The notes under the pieces are model-generated. The model worked only from the letters and a program-made list of their open reading frames with translations, was not told the origin of the DNA and did no database searches. A stretch of 54,347 nt of DNA from a virus (taxonomy: Duplodnaviria > Caudoviricetes): the IMG/VR virus record IMGVR_UViG_3300032342_001249, positions 1 to 54,347 of that record; one strand, written 5' to 3'. Position 1 is the first letter of the stretch. The number at the start of each line of letters is the position of its first letter. Positions 3,861 to 50,876 of the stretch are shown here, one piece after another. The position numbers and the translations under genes are program-made.

Positions 3861-3906
3861 CGGATTGGAATAGACCGATCTGTTTTAATATCGAGGAGTT
3901 CGATAT
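3861..3906 (+). promoter_or_regulatory. ATAGA-loop hairpin plus SD-containing hairpin upstream of NadM-Nudix
   Basis: cggattgg-aataga-ccgatctg then atatcga-ggagt-tcgatat(g); same architecture at 38782-38827. Confidence 0.55.
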
Positions 3907-4927
3907 GTCAAAAATCTACGATTACGTTATTTTCATTGGACGGTTCCAACCATTCCATGCTGGCCACAAACTAGTGGTTGATACTGCTTTATCAATCGCT
4001 GATAAGGTTATTATTTGCATGGGAAGTTCTTTTTCTCCTCGTACACCTAAGAATCCCTTTACCGTTACCGAACGTGAAAGCATGTTATACGACACGTTTC
4101 CGGATCAAGTTGCAAATATTAGGGTTGCTTTCATTCGTGATCAGTTGTATAACGATCAAATGTGGGCGGCTAGTATTCAAGAAGAAGTTGATCGAATTGT
4201 TCATAGTAATGGATGGACAGACAAACCTCCCCGTGTTGCAATTATTGGTCATTCAAAAGATGACAGCAGCTATTATCTGAAAATGTTCCCACAGTGGACT
4301 CTCATTGAACACGAGATGGATGACATGGTTAATGCGACAGACATTCGTGAGTTGTATTTTGAAGGTAAGAATTTGAAGTTTTTGCAAACTATTCTGTCAG
4401 CGCCAGTGTTCCGTCGTTTGGAAGTGTTCAAAATGACGCAGGAGTATAAAACACTGGTAAAGGAACATACCATCATCAAACAGTACAAGAAACGTTGGGA
4501 AGTTGCTCCATTCCCGCCGACGTTTGTTACAGTTGATGCTGTGGTTGTTCAATCCGGGCATGTCTTAATGGTCACTCGAGATGCTGCACCAGGGGAAGGT
4601 CTGAAAGCGTTGCCTGGTGGATTCCTTGAACAAGATGAAACTTTGATCGATGGTGTTATTCGTGAACTTCGTGAAGAAACCGGTGTAAAAGTACCTGGAC
4701 CAGTGTTGAAAGGTTCTATTAAAGCATCACATGTGTTTGATGCTCCAAAGCGTTCTTTGCGTGGTCGCACAATTACTCATGCGTTCTTGATTGAACTTCC
4801 ACCTGGTACACTACCACCTGTTAAAGGTGGTGATGACGCCCGCGATGCTTTTTGGGTTCCTGTCAGTGAAATTCATAGTGATGAATGTTTTGATGATCAT
4901 TATGATATCATTCATTATTTTCTATAG
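3905..4927 (+). CDS. nadM: Bifunctional NMN adenylyltransferase / Nudix ADP-ribose pyrophosphatase (NadM-Nudix)
   Basis: FIGRFQPFHAGH, KNPF, NATDIR; Nudix box GGF....E......RELREETG. Confidence 0.93.
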   Translation: MSKIYDYVIFIGRFQPFHAGHKLVVDTALSIADKVIICMGSSFSPRTPKNPFTVTERESMLYDTFPDQVANIRVAFIRDQLYNDQMWAASIQEEVDRIVHSNGWTDKPPRVAIIGHSKDDSSYYLKMFPQWTLIEHEMDDMVNATDIRELYFEGKNLKFLQTILSAPVFRRLEVFKMTQEYKTLVKEHTIIKQYKKRWEVAPFPPTFVTVDAVVVQSGHVLMVTRDAAPGEGLKALPGGFLEQDETLIDGVIRELREETGVKVPGPVLKGSIKASHVFDAPKRSLRGRTITHAFLIELPPGTLPPVKGGDDARDAFWVPVSEIHSDECFDDHYDIIHYFL

Positions 4928-7383: not shown

Positions 7384-8313
7384 ATGATGTATGGAAATAA
7401 GCTAGCCGTAGCTATCAAATCCAACGGTAAAGTCCTTCGTGAATTTAAGGACATCGTTTATCTGCCATTCAGCGCAGAATACTCAATTTTTATTAAGAAT
7501 CTCGAAACAGTTCGTGCTTCAATCAAAATTTTGATTGACGGCAATGATATTGGTGAAGGAACGACGTTTGTCATTCCTGCGAGTTCGTCTATTGAAATTG
7601 AGCGATTTGTTAAGAATGGAAACTTTAACAAAGGTAATCGCTTCAAGTTTATTGAGCGCAACGCCTCCGTTGAAAATCATCGAGGTATTGGTGGTGAAGA
7701 TGGATTAGTTGTTGTTGAATATCAATTTGAACAACGTGCACCAAAAACTGAATATGTTTATAAAGAGGTTGTTGAAATTGAACGACGTTGGCCACGACGC
7801 TTGGGTTGGAATGAACTGCATACTCCTCCACCAATTTGGTACGGCGCCGGGGCGATATCGAGTTCGAATCTAATCCAAGCTAATTCCGGAACTAGTAATT
7901 TGAGGGGAGCAACTCTTAATTCTAGTGGTGGTCAAGGAGTAGAATCCGCTACATCGCTCATCGGCTCTAGTGGTGATCACGGTGAGCAAGTATTGCTAAA
8001 TTCAGCAAATACATTCTCACAAACAGTGTATGATTCATGTCCAGCATCCTCTGGAAATTTTTCTGCAAACGATGCTGGTATTACTGCTGCAGGTTCTGTG
8101 TCAGAACAGAAATTTCAAACAGCAGCATGGTTTCCAACACAAGCTGAAAAGTACAGTTTGGTATTAAAGTTGTTGGGACAGACGGAAACAGGTAAACAGG
8201 TTGTACAAGCAGTTACAGTAAAAAAGAAACAGAAGTGTTCCACATGTGATCACATGAATAAGGCCAATGCCAAGTTCTGCACAGAATGTGGTACCTCGTT
8301 GGAAATAGTGTAA
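7384..8313 (+). CDS. Hypothetical protein with C-terminal zinc ribbon
   Basis: CxxC..N...AKFCxxCG at C-terminus; hairpin terminator follows at ~8318-8345. Confidence 0.75.
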   Translation: MMYGNKLAVAIKSNGKVLREFKDIVYLPFSAEYSIFIKNLETVRASIKILIDGNDIGEGTTFVIPASSSIEIERFVKNGNFNKGNRFKFIERNASVENHRGIGGEDGLVVVEYQFEQRAPKTEYVYKEVVEIERRWPRRLGWNELHTPPPIWYGAGAISSSNLIQANSGTSNLRGATLNSSGGQGVESATSLIGSSGDHGEQVLLNSANTFSQTVYDSCPASSGNFSANDAGITAAGSVSEQKFQTAAWFPTQAEKYSLVLKLLGQTETGKQVVQAVTVKKKQKCSTCDHMNKANAKFCTECGTSLEIV

Positions 8314-9547: not shown

Positions 9548-9937
9548 TTGCAACGTCAGTGTATTGTATGCATGAAACAAAATGACGCAATGTACTATCA
9601 AGCGAACAAGAAAAAGTTGATTAAGCGTTACGTGCGACAACAAAAGAGTCGTGCTCAAAAATTTTACAATTTGTTTAAGCAGTATGCTTACTGTACGGTC
9701 TGTCAAGAACAAGATGTGTGTTGTTTGGACCTACATCATATTGACCCTAAACAAAAAGACTTTACAATTTCATCTGTTTTAAGAACCTATACATGGGAGC
9801 GAATTGTTGACGAAATGGAGAAATGTACCGTATTATGTCGTAATTGCCATTCAAAGGTTCATAAGTATGGTGAGGCGTTTGTCGCTCAAAAGACCCTAAA
9901 TCAAAATCTAGCAACAAAGTTTTTGAAGCTCGTATAG
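9548..9937 (+). CDS. HNH endonuclease (start uncertain); stop codon lies inside the downstream tRNA
   Basis: CxxC..CLDLHH.....KDFTI..KC.VLCRNCH.K.H. Confidence 0.8.
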   Translation: MQRQCIVCMKQNDAMYYQANKKKLIKRYVRQQKSRAQKFYNLFKQYAYCTVCQEQDVCCLDLHHIDPKQKDFTISSVLRTYTWERIVDEMEKCTVLCRNCHSKVHKYGEAFVAQKTLNQNLATKFLKLV

Positions 9938-10002
9938 TTCAGAGGTAGAACGGGGAATTCTAAATTCCTGCGTCGCGGGTTCGAGTCCTGCTGCGGGCAC
10001 CA
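9928..10002 (+). tRNA. tRNA with CUA anticodon (amber suppressor-type)
   Basis: GCTCGTA/TGCGGGC acceptor, GGGAA-TTCTAAA-TTCCT anticodon arm, GCGGG-TTCGAGT-CCTGC T arm, ACCA end. Confidence 0.85.
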
Positions 10003-10099
10003 TATTTTGGAAACTCGTGTTGTTTCCATCATAAATACGTTGTCATTTATATGACAGAAGAGAATACATTTTTAACTTTTATCAGACGGGAGAAGGAAC

Positions 10100-11419
10100 A
10101 TGAAGACATATGTAGGTATCGCACGCGATCATAGCGTTTCAATTCGCAGTTACGGTCTCGAAGGTGCATGCACCAAAGACTACAATACGCAAATCGCGGC
10201 AATTCAAGCAGGTTCAACACAATACAATCAAGACTCAATCGTTAGCGTTGTTCGTTTCAGCGACGTCGTCGAACGTGAAGTCGTCAATTCGCCGGTTGGA
10301 GTTTTGACACCTATCACAATATATCGTGCTAATGGTGGTTCGACCCGATTGTACGACGGTATCGGCGAACTGATTTCAATTTTCGAAAAGTTACCAGATG
10401 CAAACGATCCGAACGTTGCGTTCTTGATTATGGCTATTACCGACGGCGAAGAGAATTCTTCTCGTACCTGGCGTAGTGATCATCTGCAACGTAAGATGCA
10501 TCAATTGCAAGGAACAGATCGTTGGACATTCACGATTCGCGTCCCACGCGGGTTCAAACGTGCGTTGGTTCAACGTGGGTTCTATGAAGGTAACGTCTTC
10601 GAATGGGAACAAACACAACAAGGAATGCAAATTGCAGAAGCGGCAACTTCACTCAGTGTTGGTTCTTACTATGCAGCACGTTCACGTGGTGTAACGATGA
10701 CCAAATCGTTTTACACAACGGATTTGAGCAATGTTAATATCAAGACAATTCAAACGAACTTGATTGATATTTCCAAGCAAATTAGTGAATGGAAAGTCAA
10801 TACTGATACAGAGTCACAAATGCAAATTCGTGAATTTGCAGAAAAGATGAGTGGTAAGCCAATGCTTCGTGGGGCTGCATTCTACGAACTAGTTAAGAAA
10901 GAAGATGAGGTTCAAGAATATAAATTGATCATGATTCGTGACCGTGCAACACGTGCTGTATATTGTGGTCCGAATGCACGTCAACTTCTCAATCTACCAA
11001 CAAGTGGCACAATTCAACTTCGTCCAGGTGATCATGCAGCGTATGACGTGTTTATCCAATCAACCTCTGTTAACCGCAAGTTGCCAGTTGGCACGACATT
11101 GATGTATTGGCCAAATGTTGGTGTGGGGTACATTGAAGGCAAGAGTGCACCAAAAGCTGCTGCATCAACTCCAGCCGTCAAACCTGCTCGCAAAGTTGGT
11201 GATCCCTCTCAACTAGTTCGTAAGCAACAAATTGCTGCTGGTATTGTTCCAACGACACCTTCGGGAGGAGATTGGAATGCTGGTTATACGACTGGTTATA
11301 AACATGGCCGTGGAAAACAAGCCAATCTAGCAAAGAAAGGTACGTTTGCCGGTAATGCGACTGCATATCAAGAAGGTTTCACTGATGGTAAGGCAAAGAA
11401 GGCAAGTAAAGTCAAGTAA
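10100..11419 (+). CDS. von Willebrand factor A domain protein
   Basis: RDHSVS MIDAS-like, GSTRLYDGIG, ITDGEENSS. Confidence 0.8.
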   Translation: MKTYVGIARDHSVSIRSYGLEGACTKDYNTQIAAIQAGSTQYNQDSIVSVVRFSDVVEREVVNSPVGVLTPITIYRANGGSTRLYDGIGELISIFEKLPDANDPNVAFLIMAITDGEENSSRTWRSDHLQRKMHQLQGTDRWTFTIRVPRGFKRALVQRGFYEGNVFEWEQTQQGMQIAEAATSLSVGSYYAARSRGVTMTKSFYTTDLSNVNIKTIQTNLIDISKQISEWKVNTDTESQMQIREFAEKMSGKPMLRGAAFYELVKKEDEVQEYKLIMIRDRATRAVYCGPNARQLLNLPTSGTIQLRPGDHAAYDVFIQSTSVNRKLPVGTTLMYWPNVGVGYIEGKSAPKAAASTPAVKPARKVGDPSQLVRKQQIAAGIVPTTPSGGDWNAGYTTGYKHGRGKQANLAKKGTFAGNATAYQEGFTDGKAKKASKVK

Positions 11420-14684: not shown

Positions 14685-14759
14685 TGGAGAGTAGCTCAGA
14701 GAAAGAGCACCAGCAACTACGGCTGGATGTCGATGGTTTAAGTCCATCCTTTCCAACAA
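14685..14759 (+). ncRNA. Atypical tRNA-like RNA A (loop AACTACG, no D-loop GG, T-loop TTTAAGT)
   Basis: All four stems pair but conserved loop nucleotides are replaced. Confidence 0.65.
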
Positions 14760-36026: not shown

Positions 36027-36770
36027 ATGTTTTTAAGTCGGTTTCGAGGCAATTACTGGTCGTGCAGTGAATTTGCAGACTGGGTCCGTCGTAAGTTTGG
36101 TGGCATTGAGAAGCCACTTGCTGCCACAATGGAAGAGTGGGATCAATATAAAGTTGACGCTCAAGCAAAGAGCAAGGTTGTGTATTGGTTGACCGGTGAT
36201 GGATTGACAATACTGCAAAACATTGTTTATTTTCCTTACGATGTTCTTGACGCAGTTCGTTATTACTTTGTCACTCGTTTTATTACAAAGCCACACATGG
36301 TTCCAACACGATTGGAGCCAGGTGTGTATCACGAGACTGACACACGCTTGTTTCACGGAGCGTTTGAGCTTCTTGTTGACTTCATTGAAATTGAAAAGGC
36401 ATGGATGGCAGTCGTGTTTGATAGCAAGGGAGAAGAATGGGAAAAGTATGGATATCCACGGTGGTATCGTTATCGTTTGTTGAGATGGACACGTAAGTTT
36501 CGTAGTCCAGAAGCAGGACTGGCACATCTTGAGTGGGAGATGTCTCTTGACAACGATGGTCCAGAAGGATGTCCGTCACAGGCAGCAGCGGCTCGTGAAC
36601 AGCTCGCAATATACAAGTGGTGGAAGACAGAACGGCCAGCTAGAGTTGAACCATACGATGTAAAGGGTTTGACGTACGAACAGCGTCACGAAATGGAAGA
36701 AAAGTATTTTCAAGAAGACGACGAGATGTTTATTCGTTTGATCAAGGTTAGAAGGAGTTTGTGGACATAA
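36027..36770 (+). CDS. Hypothetical phage protein
   Basis: GGAG SD; LVDFIE.EKAW, QA..ARE...Y.WW...RP.R, RLIKVR.SLWT. Confidence 0.75.
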   Translation: MFLSRFRGNYWSCSEFADWVRRKFGGIEKPLAATMEEWDQYKVDAQAKSKVVYWLTGDGLTILQNIVYFPYDVLDAVRYYFVTRFITKPHMVPTRLEPGVYHETDTRLFHGAFELLVDFIEIEKAWMAVVFDSKGEEWEKYGYPRWYRYRLLRWTRKFRSPEAGLAHLEWEMSLDNDGPEGCPSQAAAAREQLAIYKWWKTERPARVEPYDVKGLTYEQRHEMEEKYFQEDDEMFIRLIKVRRSLWT

Positions 36771-36774
36771 AGAG

Positions 36775-37036
36775 GAGATAGATTGAGCTATCGCTGCCTT
36801 GAAAACAAGGTAGAGGAAGTTCAGGGATGCCTAGAACAGGATTCAACGCAATGTGGGAGGGACTGTGGTCCCATTCGCACCATAACGTTGGCCGCATTAA
36901 GCTAAACAGAATCCTATGACGCTGTTCGCCGAGGATTCGGGTTAGTGCAGTCTTCTATAAACGGAGACCAAACAGTTTAAAACTGTTTGAGACGAATGAT
37001 AGCATAAAACAGAACCCTGGCTACGGATCTATCTAC
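36775..37036 (+). ncRNA. rnpB: RNase P RNA (compact, ~260 nt)
   Basis: P1 agatagat/atctatct, P2 gctatcg/tgatagc, P3 ctgccttg/caaggtag, CR-I GAGGAAGTTCAGGG, CR-IV AGACGAAT, CR-V AACAGAACCCTGGCTA. Confidence 0.85.
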
Positions 37037-37116
37037 TTTTTGTTGTTTTGTTTAGAACACCTCTTATTAGCCGTTCACAAATAAAGCATAAATACCCTTC
37101 TACACGAGGGTATTTC

Positions 37117-38190
37117 ATGCGTTTCCTACAAGAACTAGAAGGTAATCGAGCAATTGCCAAGTCAGTTGAGAAAACTTACTTCAATGTAACCTTTCACGAA
37201 TCGTTTGGGGCGTTTCTGGAAGCCTTGCGATGTGAAAAACTCATACTTGAAGATACACAGCGAGTGGTTGTAGAACGTGGACATCTATGGGCTGATTGTC
37301 GTCGACAAGAAGGTATTATGGTTATTACAGAAGATAATCCGCTACTTACAAAAGCCACAAAGCGAATGATTGTCGGCGCTACTCGATCTACATTGGAATT
37401 ATTTGAACACGTTTTATCCCGGTATGCAACGTATTGTATTACAGAAGATATTGAACCTGACCAAATCAAAGTTAATGCTCAATATCACGAAAAACTCAAT
37501 CCATTATTTTGGGATGAATATGAAGATGGTCCACGGCTGAAAGATGATATCCGCAAGAAAATGCTTGATATTTCTGATGCATTCTGCAAATATTTGAAAA
37601 TGCCAGAAATGCATATTAGTGATATTATCTTGACAGGCAGCAACGCAAATTTTAATTGGACGGATGAGAGTGATGTTGATCTTCACGTCATTGTCGATAT
37701 GAACCAAGTTGTGAATGTGTATGGTCAGATTGTTCCAGAATATTTGGAAACAAAGCGCCGATTGTGGAATGATCAACATGAAATTACACTACACGATAAG
37801 AATGTGGAAATATATGTTCAAGATGAACAAGAACCACACACATCATCTGGAATTTATTCACTCAAGCAAAATGCGTGGGTAACAGAACCAAAATACGAAA
37901 AGCCAGAATATGACACAATTGCTGTTCGTACAAAGATAGCGAAATTTGTAAGCCACATAGATGATCTAATAGACTCAGAACAATGCGATCCAAGATGTGC
38001 AGAAGATATGATAAACAAACTTAAACGATACCGCAAAGCAGGTCTTCAGAAGAGCGGCGAATTCTCAGTTGAGAATTTGGTGTTCAAGTATCTTCGTAAC
38101 AATGGTTATCTAGAAAAGATCTCCGAGTGTAAACGACAAGGAATTGATTCGAAATTATCCATTGAAGATGAAGAATGGTGGAAAAAGTAA
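37117..38190 (+). CDS. Pol-beta superfamily nucleotidyltransferase
   Basis: DIILTGSNANFNW...SDVDLH, VEIYVQD, GEFSVENLVFK. Confidence 0.8.
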   Translation: MRFLQELEGNRAIAKSVEKTYFNVTFHESFGAFLEALRCEKLILEDTQRVVVERGHLWADCRRQEGIMVITEDNPLLTKATKRMIVGATRSTLELFEHVLSRYATYCITEDIEPDQIKVNAQYHEKLNPLFWDEYEDGPRLKDDIRKKMLDISDAFCKYLKMPEMHISDIILTGSNANFNWTDESDVDLHVIVDMNQVVNVYGQIVPEYLETKRRLWNDQHEITLHDKNVEIYVQDEQEPHTSSGIYSLKQNAWVTEPKYEKPEYDTIAVRTKIAKFVSHIDDLIDSEQCDPRCAEDMINKLKRYRKAGLQKSGEFSVENLVFKYLRNNGYLEKISECKRQGIDSKLSIEDEEWWKK

Positions 38191-38781: not shown

Positions 38782-38830
38782 CTCAAGTGGATAGACTGCT
38801 TGAGGGTTAAAGCAAAGGAGCTTTGCTATG
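38782..38830 (+). promoter_or_regulatory. ATAGA-loop hairpin plus SD-containing hairpin upstream of nadV
   Basis: ctcaagtgg-ataga-ctgcttgag then agcaaag-gag-ctttgct-ATG. Confidence 0.55.
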
Positions 38831-40213
38831 AAATCGAATCTCATTCTCAATGGTATTCTCAATACCGACAGTTACAAACTTTCCCACTGGAAACAATACA
38901 AGCCGAATACAGCGACCGTTGTTTCATATATCGAATCCCGCGGTGGTTCATTCGACTATACCCAATTTTTTGGACTTCAGATTTACCTGAAAGAATATTT
39001 GTCTCAACGAATTACGCTGGAGATGATTGATCAGGCTGAAAAGATTGCACTTGCTCACGGTGAACCGTTCAATCGCGAGGGTTGGGAATACATCGTAACT
39101 ATTCACGAAGGTCGTCTACCACTTCGTGTCAAAGCAGTTCGTGAAGGTACGAATCTTCCAACCAAAAATGTTCTTGTGACAATTGAAAATACTGATCCGA
39201 AATGTTTTTGGTTGCCATCGTATGTCGAAACTGGTGCCCTACGAGCAGTATGGTATGGTACGACTGTGTCAACAATCAGCAAAAATATTAAGAAAGTTAT
39301 TGCTGAATACTTGGAAGAAACGGGTGATCCTTCTCTGATCAATTTCAAACTCCACGATTTTGGTGCACGTGGTGTTTCTTCAAAAGAAAGTGCTGGTATC
39401 GGTGGGGCAGCACACTTGGTTAATTTCATGGGTACGGATACAATTGAAGGTCTCCTGTATGCCATGGAATACTACAATACTTCTGAAGTTCCTGGTTACG
39501 GCATTCCAGCTGCCGAACACAGTACAATTACAGCATATGGTCGTGATGGTGAAGTTGACGCCTTTCGCAACATGCTTCAACAATTCGGCAAGAAAGGTGC
39601 ATTGTTTGCCGTTGTATCTGACAGCTATGACATCTACAACGCTGTTACTAATCTGTGGGGTGGAGAACTCAAACAGGAAGTAATTGACAGTGGTGCAACA
39701 TTGGTTGTTCGTCCTGACAGTGGACACCCGGCCTCGGTTGTACTCGAATGTGTGCATCGTCTTGATACAGCATTTGGTTCTGTGGTCAATGCCAAGGGTT
39801 ATCGAGTTCTCAATACTGTTCGTGTCATTCAAGGCGATGGCATCAACGAAGTGAGCATTCGTGAAATTCTGTTCACGTTGAAGATGCATGGGTATTCAGC
39901 TGACAACGTTGCGTTCGGTATGGGAGGCGCTCTCCTTCAACATATGAATCGTGACACATTGCAATTTGCTCAAAAAGCTTGTGCAATGTTGATCGACGGA
40001 AATTGGGTTGATATCTACAAGGATCCTGTTACCGATCCAGCCAAGAAGAGTAAACGTGGTCGGCTCGGATTGTACAAGAATGAGCAAGGTGAATATTACA
40101 CAGATCGTGAAGATCTGACAAAAGAAAGCCAACTTGTAACAGTTTTCGAAAATGGTACTATAACGAAGGAGTGGACGTTCGCTGAAGTACGTGAACAGGC
40201 CAACGCATCATGA
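38828..40213 (+). CDS. nadV: Nicotinamide phosphoribosyltransferase (Nampt)
   Basis: TDSYK.SH, LHDFGARG, PAAEHS, VSDSYD, VRPDSG, IQGDG, FGMGG. Confidence 0.95.
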   Translation: MKSNLILNGILNTDSYKLSHWKQYKPNTATVVSYIESRGGSFDYTQFFGLQIYLKEYLSQRITLEMIDQAEKIALAHGEPFNREGWEYIVTIHEGRLPLRVKAVREGTNLPTKNVLVTIENTDPKCFWLPSYVETGALRAVWYGTTVSTISKNIKKVIAEYLEETGDPSLINFKLHDFGARGVSSKESAGIGGAAHLVNFMGTDTIEGLLYAMEYYNTSEVPGYGIPAAEHSTITAYGRDGEVDAFRNMLQQFGKKGALFAVVSDSYDIYNAVTNLWGGELKQEVIDSGATLVVRPDSGHPASVVLECVHRLDTAFGSVVNAKGYRVLNTVRVIQGDGINEVSIREILFTLKMHGYSADNVAFGMGGALLQHMNRDTLQFAQKACAMLIDGNWVDIYKDPVTDPAKKSKRGRLGLYKNEQGEYYTDREDLTKESQLVTVFENGTITKEWTFAEVREQANAS

Positions 40214-40896
40214 AAAAGTTAGCTTATGGTATTTTCGCAGTCATTTCTCTGATGCTTTTTGCTGGGGCATATTACGAGATACTACCCACCACGATCCCTG
40301 AAGTCTTGGGGTTTGTAACAGGGGTCGTGTGTGTATGGCTCGTTGTTAAAGAGAATATGTGGAACTGGCCAATTGGAATTGCGAATAGTGCATTCTTCCT
40401 GTACACATTTTGGATAGCAAATTTGTTCGCTGACTCCATGCTACAAGTTGTTTACATTGTTCTAGGTTTTCTAGGATGGTACTGGTGGAAATTTGGGGGC
40501 GATAGTCGAAAGGAACTTACAGTTGGACGTGTGAGTTATCTCGAGATGATTTTGTTGGCAATAGCTGCTGGAATTGGTACTGTCTTCATGACACAATATC
40601 TCGAGAGTATCAAAGACGCTGCCCCATTCCTAGATGCTGTCACAACGATTTCTAGCCTCGTTGCACAATACCTTTTGTCGAGAAAGTATCTTGAGAACTG
40701 GTATGTTTGGATCGTTACTGACGTGGTGTACATCTACTTATACATCATCAAAGGACTTTACCTCACAAGTGTAACCTATATTGTGTTCTTGATTCTTTGT
40801 TTTATTGGATTAGTTGCTTGGAGGAAAACATGGAACAAACAACTGGACTCGTCATCGGCAAGTTCTATCCATTCCACCATGGCCACAAATTCCTAA
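40210..40896 (+). CDS. pnuC: Nicotinamide riboside transporter PnuC
   Basis: Multi-TM; WNWPIG, GWYWW, PFLDA..T..S..AQ.L..RK..ENW..W...D. Confidence 0.9.
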   Translation: MKKLAYGIFAVISLMLFAGAYYEILPTTIPEVLGFVTGVVCVWLVVKENMWNWPIGIANSAFFLYTFWIANLFADSMLQVVYIVLGFLGWYWWKFGGDSRKELTVGRVSYLEMILLAIAAGIGTVFMTQYLESIKDAAPFLDAVTTISSLVAQYLLSRKYLENWYVWIVTDVVYIYLYIIKGLYLTSVTYIVFLILCFIGLVAWRKTWNKQLDSSSASSIHSTMATNS

Positions 40897-41801
40897 TTGA
40901 GTTTGCAAGTGGGTATGTTGATCAGGTGACGGTAATTGTTTGTTACAAACAGGCAGACATAATTCCCGCATTTCATCGAGTAGAGTGGATCAAAGAGGCG
41001 CACCCCTCTGCGATTGTTCTTAGTGTATTATGTGATCATTTAGCAGACGACGACTCAGGAGCTTGGGCGGACACTGTTCGTAATATGATTGGTGTTCCTG
41101 ATTTTGTGTTTACCTCTGAAGATTATGGCGATCCGTTTTGCGCTTTTTTAGGTTCAACACACATTCTTGTTGATAAACAAAGATTGCATGTACCAATTTC
41201 TGCAACACTCATTCGTTCAAACCCGCAAGCCCATTTTGAAAGACTTGATCCGTGCGTTCGAGCGTACTTTGCAAAACGAATTGCTTTTGTTGGGGCAGAA
41301 TCGACAGGAACTACAACACTTGCTAAAGCAGTTGCAGCAAAGTACCACACACCGTGGGTTCCTGAGTATGGCCGCTTATATGCCGAAGGGTTAGTAACAA
41401 AGGGATTGAGTTGGTTTGATGATGATTTTGTGCACATTGCTCAGACCCAAAATGCCATCGAAGATCACATGGCTCGACAGTCAAATGGATATTTGATCGT
41501 TGACACAACGTCGTTTGCTACGTCAGTGTTTCAATTGAAATATCTGGGACATGTCACACAAAAAGTTCTTGATGTTTCAAAAGATCGAAAATATGATATG
41601 TACTTTGTTACCTATCCAGATATTCCTTTTGAACAAGATGGTACGCGCGACTCTGTTGATGATAGAATGACTATGCATCAAATGTTTATTGATGCATTAG
41701 AACGAACTGGACAACGTCACATTGTCGTCAAAGGAACTCTTCAGCAGAGACTTGATGTAGTTAGTGCGTATGTTGACAAAGGGTACTATTCGAACGTATA
41801 G
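40830..41801 (+). CDS. nadR: NadR-type NMN adenylyltransferase / ribosylnicotinamide kinase (no HTH)
   Basis: GKFYPFHHGH, ISAT.IR, GAESTGTTTL, EYGR, QDGTR. Confidence 0.9.
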   Translation: MEQTTGLVIGKFYPFHHGHKFLIEFASGYVDQVTVIVCYKQADIIPAFHRVEWIKEAHPSAIVLSVLCDHLADDDSGAWADTVRNMIGVPDFVFTSEDYGDPFCAFLGSTHILVDKQRLHVPISATLIRSNPQAHFERLDPCVRAYFAKRIAFVGAESTGTTTLAKAVAAKYHTPWVPEYGRLYAEGLVTKGLSWFDDDFVHIAQTQNAIEDHMARQSNGYLIVDTTSFATSVFQLKYLGHVTQKVLDVSKDRKYDMYFVTYPDIPFEQDGTRDSVDDRMTMHQMFIDALERTGQRHIVVKGTLQQRLDVVSAYVDKGYYSNV

Positions 41802-42332: not shown

Positions 42333-43175
42333 ATGTTTACTTCCGTATTTGCAGTACTCCATCCAACGAAGAAACCTGCACGTGTTCAAATGATGCTTGA
42401 AGCAATTCAAGCGGCGTGTCAACGTGCTCATGTTAATTTTGTTACTGAAGAAGCAGCTATCTTCAATACGACGTTAATTGTTGCAATTGGCGGCGATGGA
42501 ACAATGTTGCAAGCAATGCGAACTGCTGTTTTGCATGATGCAACTGCTGTTGGCATCAATCTTGGACGAGTTGGTTTTTTGACTGATATTAACTCCAGTC
42601 AATTTCCATCACAAGTCAATTTTGAAGACTTTTTCACAAATTTGTTGACAGGATCTAATGTGAATCAATTTGTTGAACAGCGAACAATGTTGTGGATCAT
42701 TCGTGGTGCAAAACCAAATCTTGCTGGAAATGAAGTTTCAATTTCTCGTACTGGTTCGGACAGTATGATTGAATATAGCATTTATGTTAATCGTTCTGCA
42801 GTTGGCACTCACCGCGCTAATAGTATTTTAATTTCAACAGCAACAGGCTCAACCGCGTACGCTCTATCTGCAGGTGGTGCTCTTATGCTTCCGGCGCTCG
42901 ATGCTTTTCAAATTGTCCCAGTTGCTCCTCTAACCTTAACGTCTCGCCCAATTGTTGTTCCTGGTGACAGTTTGATCACAATTGAAGCGTGGGCAAGTGG
43001 TATTTCCGTACGTGCAGATGGTAATGTTATTGAAGAAACAAACCAAACCTTTACACGAGAAAATCCCTTTAGCATCACGCTACAAGCGTTTGAACGTCGT
43101 TGTAAAGTGTTACATTTAGATGGTTGGAATTTCTTTGATATTCTTTCTGAGAAGTTAGGTTGGATCAAAGAATGA
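42333..43175 (+). CDS. nadK: NAD kinase
   Basis: GGDGT, GINLGRVGFL, NE, STATGSTAYALSAGG. Confidence 0.93.
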   Translation: MFTSVFAVLHPTKKPARVQMMLEAIQAACQRAHVNFVTEEAAIFNTTLIVAIGGDGTMLQAMRTAVLHDATAVGINLGRVGFLTDINSSQFPSQVNFEDFFTNLLTGSNVNQFVEQRTMLWIIRGAKPNLAGNEVSISRTGSDSMIEYSIYVNRSAVGTHRANSILISTATGSTAYALSAGGALMLPALDAFQIVPVAPLTLTSRPIVVPGDSLITIEAWASGISVRADGNVIEETNQTFTRENPFSITLQAFERRCKVLHLDGWNFFDILSEKLGWIKE

Positions 43176-49578: not shown

Positions 49579-49839
49579 ATGAAACTTTTCAAAATTCAAG
49601 AAGGTACTGCTGCTCGTCTCGTTAATGTTGAAAAACAAACGGAACAGCCATTCGTTACTCGAAAAGAATTGTTGCTCGATTGTGAAGACATTCTCTTCGA
49701 TCCCGTAAGTGTATACAATCAAACGAAACAAATCATCAGCGAATATGGAATTATGCAAGGTGATATCGATCAACGTGCAAAATATGTGTTGATCGTTCCT
49801 GCAATATTTGTTGAAATTCAGATTGAGGATGACGAATGA
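49579..49839 (+). CDS. Hypothetical protein
   Basis: GGAGG SD, coupled to cca. Confidence 0.55.
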
Positions 49840-50876
49840 AAATCTATCAAGTAGGCGGTTGTGTCCGAGACAAGTTACTCGGCTTGACACCTAAAGATAT
49901 TGATTATGTTGTTGTGGGGTCAACTCCACAGCAAATGCTCGACTTGGGCTATCAACAAGTGGGGTCAAGCTTTCCCGTTTTCTTGAAGGACGGTGAAGAA
50001 TATGCTCTTGCTCGTACGGAACGAAAGACTGGTGTGGGCTATAATGGCTTTGAAACAAAACACGATCCAAATGTTACTTTGGAAGATGATTTGTGTCGGC
50101 GAGACTTAACAATCAACTCTATGGCGATGGATGAAGATGGTCATCTATTTGATCCACATGGTGGTCAGTCAGATCTTCAAGCACAAATACTGCGACATAC
50201 CAGCGAAGCGTTTGCTGAAGATCCTGTTCGTGTTCTTCGTACAGCCCGATTTGCAGCCCGGTACAAGTTTGACATTGCTCCTGACACAATTGAATTGATG
50301 AACAAAATTGCTCATGAATTAGATTTTATTCCACAAGAGCGAATTTGGACGGAGATTGAAAAAGGGTTGATGGAAAAAACTCCTGCAGTAATGTTTGACA
50401 CGTTGACACGATGTGGTGCTTTTACTCGATCCGATGCTCTTAAACCATATTGCAAGTACAGTTCCAATCGATTGTGGCAGGTTACTTCTGAACATGATTT
50501 GATTGTTCGATTTGTATTGATTTCTCATGCTTTCGCAGATGACGATTATACAACGTGTCGTATTCCAAACGATTGTGCTGAGGTTAGCCGCACTTTCAAC
50601 AAACATTTCAACGATTTTGTGCATTATTCGTTCTTCACTACGGCACAATGTTTGGATGTGTTATATGAGATGCGAGCATTTAGTGGATCGGCAATGGTTA
50701 TGCAAAAGTGTGTAGAAACATTAGCATTATTTCCAGAACTGGACGTTCAACTGTCAATGATTATGAGTGATTGGAAAAATGCTAAGAGCGTTGATGCTGC
50801 TTCAATTGCAATAAAATGTACAACGGGTCAACAGATCAAAGAAGCAATATACTCTGCACGATTGACAGCTCTATAA
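49836..50876 (+). CDS. cca: tRNA nucleotidyltransferase (CCA-adding enzyme, class II)
   Basis: [53 protein letters not shown]. Confidence 0.93.

Follow-up and report, generated by a model that had tools for sequence, protein, structure and literature searches.

Can a phage genome carry its own gene for the RNA of ribonuclease P (RNase P), and what would such an RNA be kept for? This question is raised by positions 36775–37039 (+ strand) of the IMG/VR virus record IMGVR_UViG_3300032342_001249, assigned to Duplodnaviria, Caudoviricetes. The complete viral record of 54,347 bp, hereinafter the window, was analyzed; it is estimated to make up 16% of the genome, so the phage would be of ~340 kb. 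RNase P counts as a universal enzyme of cells, and phages are known to carry tRNAs, transfer-messenger RNA (tmRNA) and translation factors. The results described below support the assignment of this locus, as judged from its sequence, to a compact RNase P RNA encoded by the phage.

Identification of the RNA Gene

A search with the RF00010 covariance model (bacterial RNase P class A; permissive filters, positions 36600–37200 scanned) matched positions 36775–37039 of the + strand over model positions 1–367, with a score of 66.9 bits and an E value of 3.4e-20. A second search put RF00010 at the same place (E 7.3e-22), and no member of the Rfam clan outscored it at this locus. The preliminary description of this DNA, made without database searches, had proposed a phage RNase P RNA, compact and of ~260 nt, at 36775–37036. 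These boundaries agree with those of the match, and the covariance-model search suggested there, in which the absence of a hit would have counted against the proposal, aligned RF00010 end to end (E 3e-20). The RNA gene is ~262 nt long compared with the 367 positions of the model, to which it is a full-length type A match. Its identity as a phage RNase P RNA is also borne out by a family of viral relatives in which every helix shows compensatory covariation.

The predicted fold has a free energy of −91.3 kcal/mol, compared with −64.6 ± 5.0 kcal/mol for shuffled sequences (z = −5.4), and 0/200 shuffles were equally stable. The RNA sits between the + strand open reading frames (ORFs) 36027–36770 and 37117–38190. 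When Rfam was applied at gathering thresholds, 30 tRNAs were the sole matches in the window and RNase P RNA was absent from that scan; since its score is below the gathering threshold, routine annotation misses the window RNA.

Structure of the Catalytic Domain

The gene was divided into paired regions (P), joining strands (J) and loops (L) as follows:

36775–37039, + strand: whole RNase P RNA gene, full-length RF00010 match (minimum free energy z = −5.4)
36776–36784, + strand: 5′ strand of P1, pairing with 37026–37034 (9 bp)
36787–36792, + strand: 5′ strand of P2, GCUAUC, pairing with GAUAGC at 36998–37003
36794–36813, + strand: P3, a hairpin of 8 bp with an AAAA loop, read from the sequence; its base pairs covary
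36813–36826, + strand: J3/4 and 5′ strand of P4, GAGGAAGUUCAGGG, with bulged U 36821, aligned to the consensus GAGGAAAGUCCGGG
36827–36830, + strand: 5′ strand of P5, AUGC, pairing with GCAU at 36894–36897; 4/4 pairs compensatory
36834–36838, + strand: 5′ strand of the P6 pseudoknot, GAACA, pairing with UGUUC of loop L17 at 36923–36927
36839–36893, + strand: reduced specificity domain (S-domain), one irregular hairpin; ~140 model positions replaced by 51 nt
36901–36946, + strand: P15 (GCUA/UAGU), P16 (GAAUCC/GGAUUC), P17 with loop L17, and L15, from the model alignment and subgroup pairing
36950–36989, + strand: two hairpins in the P18 position; 23 model positions replaced by 38 nt
36990–36998, + strand: J18/2, AGACGAAUG, aligned to the consensus AGAugAAUG; AG..GAAUG invariant in 26/26 sequences
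37009–37022, + strand: J2/4 ACAGAA and 3′ strand of P4, CCCUGGCU, aligned to the model consensus
37025–37034, + strand: 3′ strand of P1, from the sequence and the P1 pairing
37036–37056, + strand: U-rich tract following P1, where the transcript may end (sequence only)

P1, P2, P3 and the P4 pseudoknot, named in the preliminary description, were all located; P5, P6, P7 and the true P15, P16, P17 and L15 had been overlooked there. P1 may lengthen to 36770/37040 across one G-A mismatch. It is present in all 34 family sequences examined, with 5–15 paired positions and a sequence that differs per member, and 9/9 of its pairs covary in the 15-sequence alignment A2. In the same alignment, P2 is 100% paired and 5/6 of its pairs are compensatory.

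In the P4 pseudoknot, positions 36818–36826 pair with 37015–37022. Read as one, J2/4 and the 3′ strand of P4 are ACAGAACCCUGGCU at 37009–37022, where the strand of the model consensus is ACAGAACCCGGCUU. Comparison with the RF00010 consensus revealed no indel, and P4 keeps the layout of 3 bp, then the bulged U, then 5 bp. Three pairs are swapped relative to the consensus (A-U to G-C, G-C to U-G and C-G to A-U). The compensatory A-U change reported earlier for this helix is one of the three, namely A36823-U37018 in place of C-G. P4 is 99.2% paired in the 15-sequence alignment, with column pair 50:294 being A-U in 9 and G-C in 6 sequences, and the columns of J3/4 and the 5′ strand of P4 are invariant or covarying across 26 sequences.

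Three hallmarks of type A were found in the window RNA. The first is P4 with a bulged U, flanked by J3/4 GAGGAA and J2/4 ACAGAA. The second is P15 with the L15 internal loop carrying GGU: the sequence CGGGU at 36938–36942, invariant in 26/26 sequences, holds the GGU motif within 36939–36942, and P15 is 100% paired in the window subgroup, with 3/4 pairs compensatory. In bacterial RNase P, the GGU of L15 pairs with the 3′-CCA of tRNA. The third is P6 together with P16/P17, the hallmark of type A versus type B; within the window subgroup, P6 contains one compensatory pair, A-U in the window and G-C in 4 relatives. As for the 3′ end, the consensus scan called no terminator at the U-rich tract 37036–37056; its lone + strand call was a hairpin at 37096–37110.

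Covariation and Conserved Core

A MAFFT alignment of 26 compact members of the family was made without a structure model. It contained 44 invariant columns, located on J3/4–P4, L15 CGGGU, J18/2 and J2/4–P4, and RNAalifold predicted 32 pairs on it, 20 of them compensatory. For 45 hand-assigned pairs in 15 sequences, covering P1, P2, P3, P4, P5, two S-domain stems, P15 and P16, standard pairs were formed in 95.5% of cells, compared with 25.7–41.0% when the partners were slid by 1–3 columns. Both sides change in 32/45 of these pairs, and 0/500 shuffles, whose statistics ignore kinship between sequences, reach the observed value on any of five measures.

The window subgroup, consisting of the window and the loci L095, L122, L138 and L266, was analyzed with 55 pairs, including P4, P6, P7, P17 and three S-domain stems. 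Pairing reached 97.0% versus 34.5–47.2% for slid partners, and 20 pairs were compensatory versus 8.5 in shuffles. For P6 in a fixed register, 95% of cells pair in 10 group II members of the family versus 27.5–52.5% when slid, 7/8 pairs are compensatory, and the covariation score is 1.03 versus 0.38 (0/500 shuffles). Judged by these alignments, the structure of the RNA is under selection.

Contigs from four DNA runs yielded near-identical copies of the locus with one substitution in the RNA, at 36843 in an unpaired junction (depth ~5), as well as short fragments of other family members. This variation is too sparse to test selection on the RNA.

Reduced Specificity Domain and P18 Position

The irregular hairpin proper of the S-domain spans 36844–36890. 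The domain consists of P7 (GG/CC), a P10-like stem (CAACG/CGUUG), a P11-like stem (UGUGG/CCAUA), the dinucleotide GA, a P12-like hairpin (GGGAC-UGUG-GUCCC) and AUUCGCA. All of its stems pair in 5/5 members of the window subgroup, some via compensatory changes. P8, P9, P13 and P14 are missing, so the complete type A S-domain (P7–P14, J11/12, J12/13) is not present, and J11/12 is cut to the 2 nt GA from the 12-position consensus ACAGAAAacAgA. When a full-size phage relative was aligned to the model, the missing parts were exposed as P8, P9, J11/12, most of P12, J12/13 and P13/P14, which confirms the earlier suggestion of a reduced S-domain without P8/P9.

The two hairpins in the P18 position fail to align to P18 of the model. 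They are absent from the closest relative, L095, and from most group II/III members; other two-hairpin inserts at P18 occur in L122, L138, L153, L148 and the cultured Stenotrophomonas phage vB_SmaS-DLP_6 (DLP6). The preliminary description had listed them as P15-like (36950–36968) and P18-like (36969–36989). Both hairpins exist, but the names were wrong, as both are variable inserts at P18 and the real P15 lies within 36901–36946.

Family of Viral Relatives

To find relatives, the pattern GAATG-N6-14-ACAGAANCCYGGCT was used, which represents J18/2, P2, J2/4 and the window-type 3′ strand of P4. It matched 46 viral loci in IMG/VR. The 5′ strand of P4, GAGGAAG[C/U]UC[A/G]GG, was not selected by the pattern and was nevertheless found 150–310 nt upstream in 33/46. 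These 33 loci correspond to 30 distinct sequences besides the window; their trimmed lengths are 196–365 nt, except for one RNA that an inserted ORF brings to 652 nt, and a P1 whose sequence varies between members is present in 33/33. Five others of the 46 loci (L123, L126, L134, L151 and L152) hold copies that are incomplete or contain insertions, and eight look like chance matches in coding sequence. RF00010 matched 15/46 loci when run on whole records, 6 of them above the gathering score, and 4/9 among records at least 90% complete. The full-size phage members score 118–189 bits, above the gathering score.

The carriers include genomes of 358 kb with terminal repeats (G015), 332 kb (G023), 360 kb each (G024 and G039) and 455 kb (G029). 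A BLASTN search with a 198-nt member also revealed an unannotated copy in DLP6 (KU682439.2, positions 105781–106008, corresponding to L303 2467–2694). It is 228 nt long and lies in a tRNA array between a hypothetical gene and tRNA-Arg, 17 nt upstream of the latter; RF00010 gave it 28.5 bits (E 3.7e-7). The relatives on the 358 kb genome with terminal repeats and in cultured DLP6 indicate that the RNA belongs to phage and not to host DNA. P4 of DLP6 is GUUCGCGA/UCGCGGCU, in which one more pair is swapped (G-C to C-G); J18/2 of DLP6 is AGAUAAAUG, where others have AGAYGAAUG. Since the search pattern cannot match the P4 of DLP6, the family is larger than sampled. The main text of the DLP6 paper reports 30 tRNAs and contains no occurrence of "RNase P", "ribonuclease P" or "ribozyme" (PMC5349666).

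Other searches were less productive. In BLASTN searches against 50,697 phage records, the window RNA region gave no match, and the full-size RNA of L142 matched a single entry, a Salmonella chromosome record, at its own rnpB. A two-strand pattern with the spacing of the window gave 0 matches. Relatives sought via neighboring proteins amounted to 0, 1 and 0 loci, the single locus (L002) having no RNase P RNA on its record. The 14-mer GAGGAAGTTCAGGG alone was rejected as a family probe because it is too unspecific: it occurred at no fewer than 118 loci, and among the matches listed just L095 has a matching 3′ strand.

The pattern for J18/2, P2, J2/4 and the 3′ strand of P4 was also applied to 185,579 species genomes and gave at least 120 matches, a number compatible with chance by our own estimate. 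Among the 120 matches listed, three are phage-type RNAs (L192, L233 and L266), of which L192 does not differ from the RNA of the 455 kb phage G029. One match, L256 from Citrobacter, represents a classical rnpB and has GAGGAAAGUCCGG; the others listed have no matching 5′ strand. No bacterial lineage with the phage P4 signature was thus found among these 120 matches. A role of the gene as attP, providing homology to host rnpB for integration, was considered and rejected on the evidence of the gene itself, which is complete, has diverged from cellular rnpB and shows conservation by covariation.

Several relatives have unusual arrangements. In L143 11471–12122 (− strand; 360 kb genome G024), the RNA is 652 nt long and scores 118 bits with RF00010; a 105-aa ORF is located inside its S-domain (RNA positions 180–494). 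This ORF matched no Pfam family. Its paired Cys/His residues give it no more than an HNH/endonuclease-like look, and the insert is possibly a homing element, or else an intron within the ribozyme gene. L123 (~7700–8215) and L126 (~2240–2760) contain related RNAs, both missed by RF00010, with J3/4 GAGGUAAG and ~190 nt inserted at P18; the terminal part of this insert resembles the T-arm, acceptor stem and CCA of a tRNA, but ARAGORN calls no tRNA there. In L150, L160 and L159 (records G031, G041 and G040), a second 5′ P4 strand is located 247 nt upstream of the first, just upstream of the RNA of 198–200 nt. Behind this strand comes a P16/P17/L15 segment of group I type, abutting P1 of the complete group II RNA, and the arrangement looks as if a newer copy had displaced an older one that is now truncated.

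Comparison with Known RNase P RNAs

The topology of the window RNA is that of bacterial type A (RF00010, with E. coli M1 RNA as the textbook example), including P1–P5, the bulged U of P4, P6, P15–P16–P17 and the GGU of L15. The joining strands J3/4 GAGGAA, J18/2 AGAYGAAUG and J2/4 ACAGAA are also the same. However, the phage RNA is ~262 nt long, has no P8, P9, P13 and P14, has J11/12 shortened from 12 to 2 nt and has two unrelated hairpins instead of P18. In addition, its three swapped P4 pairs form a signature common to the phage family, and it is encoded by a phage with no rnpA gene beside it.

Five classes of RNase P RNA structure have been described, the smallest of which, M and T, were found only in archaea; P6 with P16/P17 tells type A from type B (PMC7191817). 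Type T RNA of Pyrobaculum and relatives is ~200 nt long and has lost most of the S-domain while still being catalytic (Lai et al. 2010, cited in PMC7191817). The S-domain is nearly absent in type T RNAs of Thermoproteaceae archaea, which have no P11, J11/12, J12/13 and P12 (PMC7191817). The smallest phage relatives, 196–203 nt, are of similar size. Type T, however, works with archaeal proteins, whereas the phage RNAs are of bacterial type A by sequence and by P6, P16, P17 and L15. The window RNA keeps P10-, P11- and P12-like stems and does not belong to type T, so the likeness concerns the degree of reduction only.

Reduced RNase P RNAs of Mycoplasma fermentans, mitochondria and plastids and the engineered "Micro P" show that the loss of peripheral helices and of parts of the S-domain is tolerated by bacterial-type RNase P RNA. 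Those forms originate from the reduction of cell or organelle genomes or from design, while here the RNA is carried by a virus and full-size sister copies occur in related phages. The tRNA arrays and tmRNA of large phages offer a parallel, in that stable RNAs serving translation were taken from hosts and retained by phages; RNase P RNA, however, is a processing ribozyme and not a translation substrate. Huge phages have been described to carry tRNAs, tmRNA and SmpB (PMC7162821).

Association with tRNA Genes and Proposed Function

If the RNA is a functional ribozyme, its substrates are to be expected among the tRNAs of the phage. The following features of the window are relevant:

5556–35920, + strand: array of 38 tRNA genes, the presumed substrates (ARAGORN; 30 above the Rfam gathering score)
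49836–50876, + strand: CCA-adding-type class II nucleotidyltransferase of 346 aa, head and neck only (PF01743, E 9e-20; PF12627, E 3e-11)

The discriminator base is followed by an encoded CCA in 25/30 tRNA genes of the window, which fits the invariant GGU of L15. Among the 33 family loci, two hold no tRNA; in the remaining 31/31, the nearest tRNA is on the strand of the RNA. Its distance is no more than 300 nt in 21/33 loci, no more than 1 kb in 24/33 and 0–18 nt in 14, and in L142 tRNAs lie 4 and 6 nt from the two ends of the RNA. Five relatives at least 90% complete gave 42, 49, 49, 54 and 76 tRNA matches. The nucleotidyltransferase matched NF008137 with E 1e-95, below the curated cut-off, over model positions 1–204 of 409 (the N-terminal half). 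The preliminary description had seen in it a gene giving the phage its own 3′ tRNA maturation. A CCA-adding-type gene is indeed present, but because 25/30 tRNA genes already encode CCA, it is more likely a repair enzyme than a maker of tRNA 3′ ends.

The results above demonstrate the homology of the RNA to type A, its structure and the conservation of this structure by covariation; they also show that it is one of a family of phage RNAs and that it is placed with tRNA arrays. Going beyond them, the locus is probably a genuine RNase P RNA gene of a very large phage, derived from type A, in which the whole catalytic domain is kept and the S-domain is one hairpin, and which would give a working ribozyme for the phage tRNAs with host RnpA. 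In bacterial RNase P, the active site and the grip on the acceptor end of the substrate are provided by P4 with its bulged U, J3/4, J18/2, J2/4 and the GGU of L15. As the part reading the T-loop is gone, the RNA is read here as a probably active ribozyme that would recognize pre-tRNAs mainly via the acceptor stem and CCA. The preliminary description had further suggested that the reduced S-domain may relax T-loop recognition, so that the many atypical tRNAs could be processed; a relaxation of this kind would have some footing in the J11/12 of just 2 nt and in the 10/38 window tRNAs that deviate from the RUUCRA T-loop.

The gene order suggests that the window RNA would be transcribed with or beside the phage tRNAs. 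It would then cleave the 5′ leaders of the 38 or more pre-tRNAs of the phage, which would be held mainly by the acceptor stem and by CCA–L15 pairing and not by the T-loop. The protein RnpA would presumably be borrowed from the host, since no phage copy is detectable. Where a tRNA directly follows, an RNase P cut at the 5′ end of that tRNA would also free the 3′ end of the ribozyme itself. The benefit could be an extra or host-independent capacity for tRNA maturation in a phage whose own tRNAs flood the cell.

A number of points weigh against such a function. The score of 66.9 bits is below the RF00010 gathering score of 100, so the RNA does not reach the curated threshold for type A. For P6, two of the five fixed-register measures were reached by shuffles (64/500 and 424/500), and by best-helix length P6 was no better than shuffled loops (mean 6.6 versus 5.6 bp; 4/30 members significant). 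The hand-assigned structures were derived from the same sequences that were tested, which favors them over the slid controls. Judging by what is established for bacterial RNase P, an RNA that has lost the J11/12 module should bind pre-tRNA less tightly. The nearest tRNA of the window is not adjacent and ends 855 nt upstream of the RNA. RnpA (PF00825) was absent from the window (~16% of the genome), as the preliminary description had stated, and from 5/5 relatives with a completeness of at least 90%, whereas 10/14 reference genomes searched as controls contained it; the protein partner has to be assumed because no phage RnpA was detected. The nearest sequenced phage, Ralstonia phage RsoM2USA (344 kb; AAA protein 42% identical over 94% of the query), has no copy of the RNase P RNA by model or by pattern, so the gene is dispensable for that phage type. 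Finally, the flanking genes are not shared, as 0/8 proteins have a homologue on the loci of the closest RNA relatives, bar one 89-aa ORF on L153.

The reading as a working ribozyme can be extended. It is quite possible, and put forward here tentatively, that large phages carry a lineage of RNase P ribozymes of their own, whittled from full type A to ~196 nt in steps that can still be traced among present relatives; these would be the smallest natural bacterial-type RNase P RNAs and effectively a further structural class. Such RNAs, devoid of the T-loop module, would capture host RnpA and control the maturation of arrays of 40–76 tRNAs, including atypical ones, and would maybe cut their own 3′ end.

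The lack of a phage RnpA in the window and in 5/5 near-complete relatives would also suit an RNA that mainly binds host RnpA to starve or redirect the holoenzyme, its own catalysis being secondary or lost. The regions P2/P3, J18/2 and J2/4, where the bacterial protein sits according to structural work, are kept, and the S-domain module that reads the substrate is lost. Nevertheless, we consider this unlikely: a decoy needs neither the invariant bulged U and P4 geometry nor the GGU of L15 nor P6, all of which are conserved or covarying. Moreover, the genes sit inside tRNA polycistrons, and full-size members with intact J11/12 and J12/13 in sister phages point to ordinary enzymatic use.

Another view is that the ribozyme is active and its substrates have shifted to tRNA-like structures, atypical phage tRNAs or polycistron spacers, including its own ends. 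It would agree with a J11/12 reduced to GA and with the 10/38 window tRNAs that have no canonical RUUCRA T-loop, five of them sharing UCCGA. Many members also lie 0–18 nt from a tRNA, and a cut at the 5′ end of that tRNA would make the 3′ end of the ribozyme. However, the T-loop is canonical in 28/38 tRNAs, CCA/GGU pairing is the standard bacterial mode, and no non-tRNA substrate is pointed to by any of the data obtained, which makes a shift of this kind improbable. The sub-threshold score, the deletion of large parts of the model and the absence of the gene from the closest isolate (RsoM2USA) might suggest that the locus is the decaying remnant of an rnpB gene captured from a host, with no present function, or that host DNA was wrongly assembled into a viral contig. 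Both are hardly credible, because in dozens of diverged copies the pairing of every helix is preserved by compensatory changes, 44 invariant columns lie on the catalytic core, and copies are found in a cultured phage as well as on phage genomes that are complete. Moreover, the P4 variant is common to the phage family, while in bacterial genomes it was found in 3 of the 120 matches listed, one of these being the same as the copy of the 455 kb phage.

Significance of the Phage RNA

Searches of the full-text literature, in a collection that leaves out most subscription journals, found no report of an RNase P RNA encoded by a phage or another virus, so an earlier report is possible. The terms "RNase P", "ribonuclease P" and "ribozyme" have 0 occurrences in the main text of the huge-phage paper (PMC7162821), and "phage", "virus" and "viral" have 0 occurrences in the P Finder paper (PMC7191817). 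Given that no report was found, the RNase P RNA described here would be a new item in the phage repertoire and belongs to a sizeable, widespread and unannotated phage family. This family offers a natural reduction series, from full size to ~196 nt within the type A framework, which shows the parts of the ribozyme that are dispensable in vivo and raises the question of how substrates are recognized without the T-loop module. Phage and metagenome surveys undercount such RNAs because standard annotation misses them: RF00010 fails to report the window RNA at the gathering threshold and finds 15/46 pattern loci. The unannotated copy in cultured DLP6 makes the function directly testable at the bench.

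Neighboring Genes and Additional Observations

The RNA gene is flanked by two ORFs:

36027–36770, + strand: upstream ORF of 247 aa without a family; its stop codon abuts the RNA
37117–38190, + strand: downstream ORF, 357 aa from ATG, with weak, sub-threshold nucleotidyltransferase-fold matches

The upstream ORF has one homologue (36% identity), located on L002, whose record is without RNase P RNA. It is also shared by an abundant relative (run X11, contig of 3551 nt), with 29 differences per 168 nt over window positions 36603–36770; this relative diverges wholly from 36770 onward, which is the exact start of the RNA gene. The downstream ORF matched PF01909 and PF18765, both with E 0.003 and below the cut-off, and no NCBIfam model.

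Among the tRNAs of the window, the five with the UCCGA T-loop (16939, 23776, 27194, 27272 and 33182) have C at the near-universal U55 position. Two tRNAs with a CUA anticodon (amber suppressors, called "Pyl" by ARAGORN) are located at 9928–10002 and 14685–14757, the second having an unusual T-loop, UUUAAG, and TAG ends 13/66 window ORFs called under table 11. In L126, ARAGORN calls a permuted tmRNA at 9797–10238, at the same locus as the RNase P RNA and 16 tRNAs.

The window also contains a set of metabolic genes at 314–1393, 3905–4927, 38828–40213, 40797–41801 and 42333–43175. The set comprises a Glu/Leu/Phe/Val-type dehydrogenase, an NMNAT-like cytidylyltransferase–Nudix fusion, NAMPT, an NadR-like cytidylyltransferase with an AAA_28 kinase domain, and NAD kinase.

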